A DNA stretch of 63,032 bases, counting the filler, from Rhabdomonas costata (lineage: Eukaryota): the NCBI GenBank assembly GCA_019059605.1. It is 38 parts of 38 records of this genome, joined end to end, with 100 filler letters (N's around TTAATTAATTAA, not from the genome) between each part and the next. Parts side by side here need not be neighbours in the genome. Positions count along the whole stretch, not along the records: positions 34,901 to 36,458 come from JAHMHO010013034.1; 37 more parts are not named here. The stretch is one strand, 5' to 3'. Each line of letters begins with the position of its first letter. Within the stretch, counting starts at the first letter, position 1. The notes below the pieces were generated by a model. That model worked only from the letters and a program-made list of their open reading frames with translations. It was not told the DNA's origin and did not search any database. Both the position numbers and the translations under genes were made by a program. Below are positions 33,240 to 36,458 of this stretch, piece after piece.

Positions 33240-34726
33240 GTCCTCGTCTTCGTCCGCCGCGGCATCTCCCGTGTTGGGGTCGCAGTGCCGGTGGCTGCGC
33301 TCCACGTTGGCCACGTGTGGGCTGTGCCCCGTGCCGCCCCCCCTGCCCAGGCTGCTGACCCTGTCCCCGCTGTGGGCGCAGAAGAACCGCCGAAGGTCCC
33401 GAACTGGATGCAGGGGGATGGGCGGAGGGGCAGCTGTGGATGAACTGATGTTAAGGTCATCGGTTTGGTCTCCAACTGGATGCTCCAAAGCGCCTGCCCT
33501 TCTTCGCTACAGTGTGTGCACGGGCTTTGCAGTTGGGTGACCACTGAGGTACTGGATGCGTCCGGTTTGTACCTGGAGTGTTTGTCCCTGCTTTTGGTAT
33601 AGTGTCTGCTTCAAAAAGTTACTTCGGATACTTTTTTCAAAAGCAACTTCGCGAAGAAATAGACGACCCATAAGCCCACAATGATGAGACGCAAGTTCAC
33701 ATCGGTTGTAAAGGTGCTAGTAAACTGAGGATGCTGGTTTTCTTTGTGTGACGGGTTTCAGAGAAGCACTCGGATACGCACAATGCGATGCTGGACAGCC
33801 GTTTGAAAGGTTCCTCATTGTCCAGAGCTTCCAAACAGCCACAGCGTCATACGCTATCCATCTCGTGCGGGTTGCGGTGGTCGGATTTTTTTCTTTTTTC
33901 AGTTTTCCGAGAAACGTCGTCCGGAACCAGAAATACAACGTGATCACCTTTCTGCCCAAGGTGCTGTACGAACAGTTCCGATTCTTCTTCAACTTGTACT
34001 TCCTGCTGATCGCCCTGAGTCAGTTTGTCGATGCTCTGAAGGTTGCTTGGTGATCAGGGGCTTTTTTGTATCTAGTGTGTATCTGTATTGGAGGCCTCGT
34101 TGACAGGGGTTTCAGTCTTGGGTACGCGCTTTTTTGCAGAGCCCTTAACTTGCATTTTCGCAAGTGACGTGCATTCATTTGCATTTACTCACAGCTCTAT
34201 TTTCTGCACTTGGTCGCCAGTATAACAATTGCAAGTGTAAACCGTGGGATGGATGTCATAGTGTACTCGTTCATTCACAAGTTGCCCGCTCTCAGGAGCT
34301 GTCGGAGAAATTGCTGTTGCGTCGTTTTTCCGTTTTGAAGCTGAGGGGTGTCAAAAGTTTCAACATTGGCTGCATCATTTGCCCGCAGACGAGTAGAATA
34401 AGCTGTTTGTTTTTTGATGTGGGGCGGGAACCTTGCTTGCGGCGCAACCGCGGTGTGCGGCGCTGTGCGTCACGCTCGACCTGGGCGCATGTGTCATTTT
34501 TTTCACTCAACAATGCAACAATGCCAATCCATTAATCCGTCCGAAAAAGCCTCCCCCGAACATAAACAATGCAACGGGTCTCTGCGAAAGCCTTGGGGGG
34601 AATGTCTTTCCGCTCGCCGGCACTTCGCTCTCTTGCGTGTGCTGCGCTGCGCCAAAGGTGGGATTCCTGTTCACTTATGTCGCGCCATTGATCTTCGTGC
34701 TGTCGGTGACGATCATCAAGGAGCTG
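33240..34726 (+). CDS. ATP9: P4-ATPase phospholipid flippase, ATP9/NEO1 subfamily, N-terminal part; exons 33240-33395, 33903-34041, 34658-34726
   Basis: [68 protein letters not shown] is characteristic of ATP9/NEO1; exon phases are compatible. Confidence 0.92.
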
Positions 34727-34900
34727 GTGTGTGGATGTAAGTATTTTGTGTGTGTCTTGTGGTGGCCGCGGATTGGAATTCGCCATCATCAACAACACAA
34801 NNNNNNNNNNNNNNNNNNNNNNNNNNNNNNNNNNNNNNNNNNNNTTAATTAATTAANNNNNNNNNNNNNNNNNNNNNNNNNNNNNNNNNNNNNNNNNNNN

Positions 34901-36458
34901 TGCTTGTGCTATGCTTCCTGTGTCTGCTTCTTGTGTTAGGGTTCCTGCTGCTGGTGTGAGGGAGTTGGTGGAGTGTGAGGGTCTGAGGTCTGAGGTGAAG
35001 GGTGTGTTGGTGTCTCGATGTCAAGCTGAGTCATGCCATGTGTTAGTGTGTAAGGGTTCACGTGTTCCTGTTCTTGATGCGTAGGGTGGATCGGAGGGTG
35101 TCGTGTGTTTCTGTCTCGTAGGGTGGTTGCTGCTGGTGTGTTTTCTCGAAGGGTGTTGTCATGGCTTCCTGTTGGTGTCGATGTTGGAAGGTGTGGGGAT
35201 TTACGACGTGTGGAATTCTGGGACGTGGATTTCTGAGGTCATGGTTGTTGGAGGATGTGAGGATGTGTGTCATGGCTGTACTCTGCTGTCATGTTGTGAG
35301 GATGTAGGGGTCTTGAGTTCTGAGGGTGTCGGGGATTTCAGGATGCGTGGGATTTACGTCTCAAGGTGAAGGGGTGTTACGGGCAATGTCAAGCTGAGTC
35401 ACCTGCTTCTTGTTTCAGAGGGTGTCTTGGGTTCCTGAGGCCTTCTTGAGTTGAGGGGTTTCAGGACGTAGGGGCATCTTGAGTTCCTACCTGCGGTGCT
35501 GATGCCTTCTACCACGGCAAGACCGCGATGCACTCTTGCCTTCGTGATGCCCTCCGATACCCTAGTGATGGAATACCCGATGCATTCTAAGGGTAAGGGC
35601 ATTCCTACCGCAGGTGCCTTGACTACTCCGGCATGCCCGTACCGACCATGCCTACGTGATGCCTAAACCCAACAGAGGCAGAAACCCGATGCCTTTCTGT
35701 TCCTCGACTTGGGGACACTTACCCTTCCATCCTCTACTACGCATGGCTCCCTCGCTGCGCTCAGACCCATGCTTCGTTCCTTCAATGCATTCTACCCTCT
35801 ATGCATGTAGGGGGTATTCTTACCTCTTAGCATCCTAGGGGCATTCCTACCGCAGGTGCCTTCTACTTCTACTCCTGCTCGGTCATGCCTTCGTGCCTCA
35901 GACATGCCCTCGACCTACAGATGGAATAGCCGATGCATTCCCATCCTTGACTTGGGAGCACTCTATTACGGCATGACCCACTGCGTGACTCATGCCTTCA
36001 TGCTGCTAAGGGTGATGCTAGGGGAGTAAAGATGGCCTGGGGGTATTTTGTGTTCTTTGCCGGTCGTGAGATCCCTTCACTACGTTCCGGTCTCTCACTC
36101 CCTATGAATGATGGCTCAGTCACTCCACCGCGATGCGGCTCCGTTCCTTCGCTAATACAGAAAATAGTCATGATGTCGGTCGCTACGCTCCCTCCTATTA
36201 CATGTCGGTGTCGCTGCGCTCCACCACCTATCCCCACTCCCTGCCGGTCGTGGGGCCCCGGGTTGATGCAGGTCGTATACTCCACTGCGTGTCGTATACT
36301 CCCTAAATGTGATGGGTCGGTCTACTCCCCACCCTTAGGTGGTACGTAGACCTCGGGGATACAAGTGGAGTATACTGCTGGTCGCATCTCGTGATACTCG
36401 ATGCTCCCGAGATGCAGATGTTCGCTCCCCGGCATAAGCCGGTACGCTCACCAAAACC
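34901..36458. other. Non-coding contig rich in repeats and hairpins, unlike the nuclear contigs (candidate replicon origin or control region)
   Basis: Strong G/T bias in the first ~550 bp, dispersed 16-24 bp direct repeats, about 9 hairpins with shared architecture, and no exon-like segments. Confidence 0.6.

Follow-up and report, generated by a model that had tools for sequence, protein, structure and literature searches.

The window analysed here is a stretch of 63,032 nucleotides from Rhabdomonas costata, made of 38 contigs of ~1.56 kb joined by linkers, and its array contig occupies positions 34901-36458 (JAHMHO010013034.1, G000:C13034). The left part of this contig is a G+T-rich non-coding arm (34901..35480, plus strand) in the strand sense of the mitochondrial coding strand, and it holds the word GTCAAGCTGAGT twice on the plus strand (35020-35031 and 35388-35399). 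The remainder is an array of at least 12 hairpins on the minus strand, spanning ~35490-36452. We recognised no mitochondrial gene in the three forward frames of the array contig (read with TAG=Tyr/TGA=Trp), and Rfam gave no match on it. Two potentially coding frames that lie ahead of arrays in L123 and L044 had no Pfam match, while the cox2 control matched. The array contig has no nuclear flank; the neighbouring contig contains, at 33900-34045 and 34660-34730, exons presumably of a P4-type ATPase (flippase) with GT-AG introns, unrelated to the array.

The array opens with an entry module on the plus strand (35487..35499), and related copies of it are found at 35600-35617 and 35842-35859. All the other elements are on the minus strand. 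Two hairpins, one with G·A, G·G and G·T columns and an ATC loop (35511..35545) and one with a GTA triloop (35625..35657), precede a 17-nt box, GTGYYYSCRAGTYRAGG (35702..35718), which is followed 12 nt later by TCGG and points back into the arm. Then come a hairpin with a GA-GC-GCA-GC-GA tip (35741..35772), a weak family hairpin module (35876..35906), a second 17-nt box with TCGG 11 nt downstream (35945..35961), a hairpin with a C(GCA)G triloop and G·G/G·T internal columns (35965..36001), a long zipper hairpin with three G·A blocks and a C(GTA)G triloop (36062..36102), and a family hairpin module with a short Watson-Crick core and purine-rich flanks (36113..36152). The best hairpins lie at 36178-36304: GG-GA-GC-GTA-GC-GA-CC (36178..36192), whose 11-nt tip is the core of the published cycad Bpu consensus, a GA/GA hairpin with a C(GCA)G triloop (36204..36228), another with a C(GGCA)G tetraloop (36232..36255), and a double GA/GA hairpin with a C(GCA)G triloop (36270..36304 with its outer GA/GA, 36275-36299 for the inner part). 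The array closes with a zipper hairpin with a C(TAAG)G loop (36319..36352), a double GA/GA hairpin with a non-GNA ATC loop (36380..36408), and a zipper hairpin with a C(TTAT)G loop (36420..36451), whose core recurs in other arrays in inverted form and marks the place where locus L201 switches orientation.

The initial annotation had described about nine hairpins here. They are present, but the count was low: the hairpins at 35511-35545, 35625-35657 and 36420-36451 had been missed, and because of them we extend the array to its present limits and the total to at least 12. The four hairpins that had been spelled out were all located on the minus strand where they had been placed (36178-36192, 36207-36225, 36232-36255, and 36275-36299). 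All carry a GNA triloop except 36232-36255, whose GGCA is a tetraloop. The looser relatives all fold on the minus strand, but the one at 35970-35996 has G·G/G·T instead of GA/GA, and the loop of the one at 36384-36404 is ATC.

We compared the array with dinucleotide shuffles of its sequence, as had been proposed, and the motif is above chance. Within 35741-36415, the minus strand holds five GA/GA hairpins against a shuffle mean of 0.064 (a number reached in 0/500 shuffles), and the plus strand holds one (reached in 6/500). When a GNA cap is included, the counts are three on the minus strand (shuffle mean 0.004) and none on the plus strand. Hairpins with any 2x2 loop present a modest excess in the same interval (11 vs. 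4.6-4.9; 5 and 8 of 500 shuffles), and therefore the enrichment is specific to the G·A design. The DNA folding z was -3.43 for the minus and -1.75 for the plus strand (20 shuffles each), and the minus strand folded better than the plus at 14 of 14 sites tested, as DNA and as RNA. In the whole array contig, RCGNAGY occurs nine times on the minus strand and never on the plus, and there are hairpins combining a GNA triloop, C-G closure, and a stem of at least 2 bp. The suggestion that nothing alike exists in the other 37 contigs of the window stood for GA/GA hairpins with a GNA loop (0/37), but a looser definition separates the contigs less well: it finds 10 hairpins in the array (shuffle mean 2.1, maximum 8 of 300) and up to 7 per strand in other contigs.

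The array contig is not unique; it is a member of a repeat family on many contigs of the assembly. Its array sequence matches at least 61 places (40 scored of 206 candidates). Each array is a mosaic built from modules of 20-100 nt, whose order is partly shuffled and some of which are inverted, and at least 36 different hairpin sequences follow one design. For the pairing statistics, hairpin cores were cut by their flanking anchors alone, so pairing was not required. Among 59 distinct anchored cores, 210 of 236 outer positions were Watson-Crick, compared to 90 (maximum 119 in 2000) with the arms reshuffled. The 669 columns of 62 anchor-defined cores comprised 473 Watson-Crick, 163 G·A, 9 G·G, 12 G·T, and 12 other, and G·A or G·G made up 172 of the 196 non-Watson-Crick columns. 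GNA was found in 40 of the 44 triloops of these cores, and 18 cores had even-length loops. The proposal of a conserved structure with varying stems is borne out at the family level: stems covary, and G·A mismatches and GNA loops are kept.

Many family loci had been fetched by hairpin similarity, and the strand test was redone on loci fetched by the 17-nt box alone. Around array-type boxes (n=34), 44 GA/GA hairpins were on the box strand and 7 on the opposite one; around leader-type boxes (n=45), the numbers were 3 and 2, and the 32.9 kb around leader boxes held only 5. GNA tips in the box-fetched loci numbered 117 vs. 35, the box strand again being given first. Thus, the favoured strand announced in the initial annotation is real, but since 7 of 51 hairpins near array boxes (about 1 in 7) face the other way, strand specificity is strong and not absolute. 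Taken at the sequence level, these patterns support a constraint on the array for a one-strand, DNA-type fold. Template-switch correction of palindromes could produce stem covariation without selection, but it would be expected to erase the G·A columns.

The 17-nt box is non-palindromic, and both of its copies in the window array are on the minus strand. It has 348 exact matches in the assembly against 0 for a reversed-pattern control, and 109 distinct box contexts were examined. A TCG word mostly follows the box 10-12 nt later (65/79). The box stands forward in G+T leaders ahead of mitochondrial genes and reversed inside arrays. At L101, a cob match begins 68 nt past the box; other boxes precede nad5-type leaders, and some precede apparent LSU rRNA pieces, identified by eye (12 leader loci had no Rfam match). 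A downstream match to gene references was present in only 9 of the 109 contexts, and several of these matches are leader rather than coding sequence. From its position, we infer that the box is a mitochondrial promoter. For 24 array boxes, the sequence further downstream was classed by composition: 15 were C+A-rich and none G+T-rich. A cYUCGg hairpin, which is of RNA type, comes after 19 of the 45 leader boxes and 3 of the 34 array boxes; therefore, RNA-type loops mark sense leaders and DNA-type loops mark arrays.

Other elements were observed near leaders and genes. In L162, L167, L175, L188, L204, L224, and L225, the leader box is preceded at a distance of 100-540 nt by the palindrome GGGTGCACCC; it is often close to where the contig starts and is possibly a 5′ end or a second dyad. 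A conserved motif of ~40 nt that holds part of the box follows both cox1 and cox2 (L069:345-425, L036, L071, L073, L080), and the cox2 frame of L069 has no TAA near the expected end under TAG=Tyr. Some molecules are gene-less (L158, L167, L188, L198, L204, L219, L228): they present a leader, the box, a cYUCGg hairpin, and ~1.1 kb of unskewed mosaic, composed of recurring short modules and rRNA-like pieces, and in L188, L198, and L204 the array follows. They resemble minicircle-like cargo. Finally, a 53-nt type I hammerhead-like core was seen in two mitochondrial-type leaders, L227 (G000:C22810, minus strand, ~100 nt after the box) and L150 (G000:C824, 1591-1643), with CUGAUGA, a stem II with a GGAA loop, GAAA, and a GUC site. 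The minimum-energy fold of the core is a three-way junction (-14.9 kcal/mol), a longer stretch around it folds otherwise, and Rfam gave no match; it is a candidate ribozyme in euglenid mitochondrial DNA.

The mitochondrial code reported for Rhabdomonas costata has TGA=Trp and TAG=Tyr (PMC8219788). The cox1, cox2, cob, and nad matches in the assembly read through TAG, and a long-insertion SSU rRNA is present; the two together point to a euglenid as the host. The mitochondrial coding strand is G+T-rich, as is the left 580 nt of the array contig. On the cox2 contig (C16366), a 1-kb G+T spacer ends in 127 nt that are the exact start of two array contigs, C10392 and C3188. Another 24 contigs share the arm found at the end of C16366; 17 of them have at least 450 nt downstream, and among these 17, ten contain at least three GNA mini-hairpins in the polarity of the window array, two are two-armed, and five contain two or fewer. 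Single contigs link the elements directly: L054 runs in one direction through a nad5-like piece, a cox2-type spacer, a window-like arm, and an array, L044 holds a nad5-like piece, arm, and array in a single direction, and in L048 a cob piece is joined to the arm. Altogether, homologues of the window arm on L040, L041, L044, L048, and L054 lie downstream of cox2-type spacer, nad5-like, or cob pieces.

Of 218 non-redundant loci, we kept the 20 array contigs of single orientation and dropped those that had markers on both strands. Among the contigs kept, the G+T arm stands before the array in 12 of 16 and after it in 0 of 13. Since this arm-then-array order is in the sense of the G+T coding strand, the hairpins are on the template strand, ~1.4 kb behind cox2. 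The layout is a leader with box, a gene, a G+T spacer, and an array with hairpins opposite the coding strand. The assembly-wide search for relatives of the pattern, one of the checks put forward in the initial annotation, found them physically joined to cox2, nad5-like, and cob sequence, and this linkage to mitochondrial DNA with the TAG=Tyr code is, along with the box common to leaders and arrays and the fixed polarity, what the present analysis adds. As for the type of replicon, which had been left between a mitochondrial chromosome, a plasmid, and a virus, the gene links speak for the first, and we found no matches for a plasmid, virus, or other replicon: blastn gave none in 72,556 plasmids or 50,697 phages, and the box pattern is absent from viral contigs. 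In many array contigs the sequence passes into nuclear-looking DNA, and the point where it does so varies.

Read depth gave a mixed picture. All values are summed contig depths from three runs of one sample (X1, X2, and X3) and not copy numbers. The mean depth of cox1 was ~4770, 365, and 149, a run ratio of 32:2.4:1, and nuclear flank pieces had 9-124, 4-82, and 2-38. The arm start of the array contig (4184, 725, and 228) and the stretch 35525-35576 (2964, 292, and 161) are cox1-like. However, exact pieces of the window haplotype had ~16-41, 3-4, and 5-6, which is nuclear-like and far under cox1, and the two deepest array modules (35733-35784 and 36045-36096) scale ~3:2:1 across the runs, as nuclear DNA does. 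The X1 enrichment is limited to the arm and box region, and distal hairpins have an X1 depth of 12-63. Array-type junction contigs reach depths of 1039 and 350 in the cox1-rich run X1. Thus, the depth comparison proposed at the outset placed the arm and box region with cox1 and the window haplotype and two modules with nuclear DNA; nuclear-like coverage, the outcome named as speaking against an unusual replicon, is partly what we see, because the depth of the window haplotype is low.

The repeat family is very probably mitochondrial in origin, and many of its copies read as nuclear or chimeric. The window copy, given its low and nuclear-like depth, is either a rare mitochondrial haplotype or, at odds slightly better than even, a NUMT. 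The reads show strong heterogeneity in the cox1 gene itself (L039:309-1078), many of its variants having depths from hundreds up to thousands, and the assembly contains 46 cox1 matches; this reads as a heteroplasmic pool plus many broken or nuclear copies. Apparent contaminants were noticed by eye in L031, L104, and L105: a second eukaryotic SSU rRNA of ordinary length and two complex I genes, one G+C-rich and bacterial-type, the other A+T-rich and without TAG read-through.

DNA mini-hairpins with a GNA triloop and a C-G closing pair are very stable and bind SSB poorly, and those of the GCGNAGC type occur at the phage G4 origin, RSF1010 ssiA, and N4 vRNAP promoters (PMC13037366, in part). Like these signals, the array has short stems capped by C(GNA)G on one strand of a candidate initiation region; unlike them, it has a dozen or more hairpins, tandem G·A zippers, and dozens of stem sequences. 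By design, it may work like a mini-hairpin initiation signal. With the Bpu elements of cycads and Ginkgo, it shares a mitochondrial setting and the identical 11-nt tip flanked by stem at 36178-36192. According to the parts of PMC8297867 used here, a single 36-bp sequence bounded by AAGG terminal repeats predominates in Bpu, which has ~500 copies, whereas the hairpins of the array vary in stem, lack AAGG ends, differ in their flanks, and are clustered and polarised. We rejected identity with Bpu on these grounds: 36 distinct clustered, polarised hairpin sequences and no dominant, dispersed 36-bp consensus.

Closer to the organism, the mtDNA of Euglena gracilis is likewise in many pieces, with full genes, broken copies, repeats, and signs of active recombination (PMC4700960, PMC4806707, PMC8130358). 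The portions of these papers used here describe no hairpin array, box, or control region in it (the word hairpin occurs 0 times in that of PMC4700960), and TAG is read through in the present assembly. The published Rhabdomonas costata mitochondrial contigs agree with ours in TGA=Trp/TAG=Tyr and in cox1, cox2, cob, and nad4 found as fragments, but the text about them deals with coding regions only, and the main text, as far as used here, does not contain the word hairpin (PMC8219788). Diplonemid chromosomes, in the part of PMC4806707 used, also have a non-coding constant region common to molecules of different cargo, and in our data L188, L198, and L204 have 1.1 kb of cargo with no gene between the same leader box and an array; the arrays differ in being heterogeneous mosaics, and the genes are not in trans-spliced modules. 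A metagenome search for relatives with one 33-letter pattern gave 0 matches, and the open papers covered hold, in their main texts, no account of such an array in euglenid mitochondria; the part of PMC7052976 used has nothing on mitochondrial priming. We regard the array as a real element, a mitochondrial hairpin repeat or a putative control region.

Our main reading is that the array is non-coding DNA behind host mitochondrial genes and may well be a control region for the priming or restart of replication, with a probability of roughly 45%. The template strand, once single-stranded, would fold into DNA hairpins zipped by G·A and capped by GNA. Transcription from reversed copies of the box, running back along the arm, would supply an RNA primer, and synthesis from there would displace the purine-rich strand, which could then fold into compact hairpins. 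These would exclude single-strand-binding protein and, as at phage G4, ssiA, and N4 promoters, offer a landing site to primase or a single-subunit RNA polymerase, so that replication would be primed or restarted there. Several points count against this model, among them the nuclear-like depth of the window haplotype and of two array modules, the passage of many array contigs into nuclear-looking DNA, and the small number of box contexts with a gene match downstream. The best hairpins (36178-36304) are upstream of both reversed boxes, so synthesis from the boxes would not displace them, and the G+T skew suggests that it is the coding strand, not the hairpin strand, that is long exposed. The shuffled module order and the arm-to-arm joins suggest that arrays also act as recombination sites, and the orientation switch of L201 at the TTAT-loop core suggests that shared hairpin cores promote recombination. 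The junctions of the orientation switches of L131, L133, L165, and L201 differ, and their halves are not mirror copies; because of this, we rejected a conserved centre of symmetry, and both a fixed dyad and a simple fold-back fail to account for these junctions. The orientation-switch and arm-to-arm joins, which have no fixed junction, may be amplification chimeras, and this too counts against the model.

The hairpins could instead be selfish, structure-selected palindromes of the Bpu, fungal double-hairpin, or yeast GC cluster type, amassed and recombined in non-coding mtDNA with no role in replication. The tip at 36180-36190, GA-GC-GTA-GC-GA, is identical to the Bpu consensus core (PMC8297867), hairpin repeats that lack a known adaptive role are common in mitochondria (PMC2800124), as the parts of both papers used here indicate, and the modules are shuffled in order and sometimes inverted. 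We consider this unlikely, though deserving serious attention: the hairpins sit together at a single position and are not dispersed, ~86% of them having the same polarity (44 vs. 7), the surroundings of leader boxes (32.9 kb) are nearly free of GA/GA hairpins, with five, and at least 36 hairpin sequences share the design with no single dominant one. In REP/RAYT elements, each hairpin has a conserved tetranucleotide tag at its 5′ foot, and no match to their Y1 transposase (TnpA-REP, PF01797) was found in the fragmented assembly of this incomplete genome. An array at the end of linear mitochondrial chromosomes, telomere-like, protective, and maintained by strand invasion into other arrays, would suit the arm standing before the array (12/16) and never after it (0/13), and the summed depth that declines toward the distal end. 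Moreover, Euglena mitochondrial DNA is described as linear with terminal repeats (PMC4700960, PMC8130358, in part), and mini-hairpins resist exonuclease (PMC13037366, in part). However, arrays end on different modules, with no terminal sequence in common, and several contigs go on into a second, inverted array and arm. The terminus would also carry the 5′ end of the folded strand, yet mini-hairpins are best known for guarding 3′ ends, and we find a chromosome end improbable.

Nuclear-like depth ratios of two array modules and the window haplotype, together with the frequent joins to nuclear-looking DNA, would fit a nuclear repeat family attached to nuclear copies of mtDNA, the real mitochondrial molecules having no array. 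This is very unlikely in our judgement, as the position and polarity behind the cox2 spacer are fixed, the box is common to arrays and mitochondrial gene leaders, the stems are intact (12/669 columns neither paired nor G·A/G·G), and array junctions reach a depth of 350-1039 in X1. The explanation we find least probable is selection of the structure as RNA, in antisense transcripts from reversed boxes. The minus strand does outfold the plus as RNA too (14/14 sites), tandem G·A and G·U pairs are compatible with RNA, and the box points into the purine-rich strand; but 40 of 44 triloops are GNA, the class that stabilises DNA mini-hairpins and whose RNA counterpart is much weaker (PMC13037366, in part), and sense-strand leaders use cYUCGg loops instead.

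Starting from replication priming as the preferred role of the array, a broader and more doubtful picture can be drawn. The mitochondrial genome would be a pool of minichromosomes, some gene-bearing and some gene-less, all with the same bipartite promoter box and a common control region made of dozens of interchangeable, G·A-zipped DNA hairpins, with two arms meeting head-to-head at the array, and the folded strands would prime bidirectional strand-displacement replication as at the RSF1010 origin. If true, what defines this organellar origin would be non-Watson-Crick DNA structure and not sequence.

For the replication and maintenance of the scrambled mtDNA of euglenids, the parts of the literature covered here name no cis-acting element. 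The present analysis offers two concrete candidates: the 17-nt box with its partner at a fixed distance, and the polarised hairpin array. Should the array turn out to be selfish, or no more than a chromosome end, it is still an unusual mitochondrial repeat, of narrower interest. In addition, the family is natural comparative evidence of sheared G·A pairs and GNA triloops being kept in DNA while the stems around them change.
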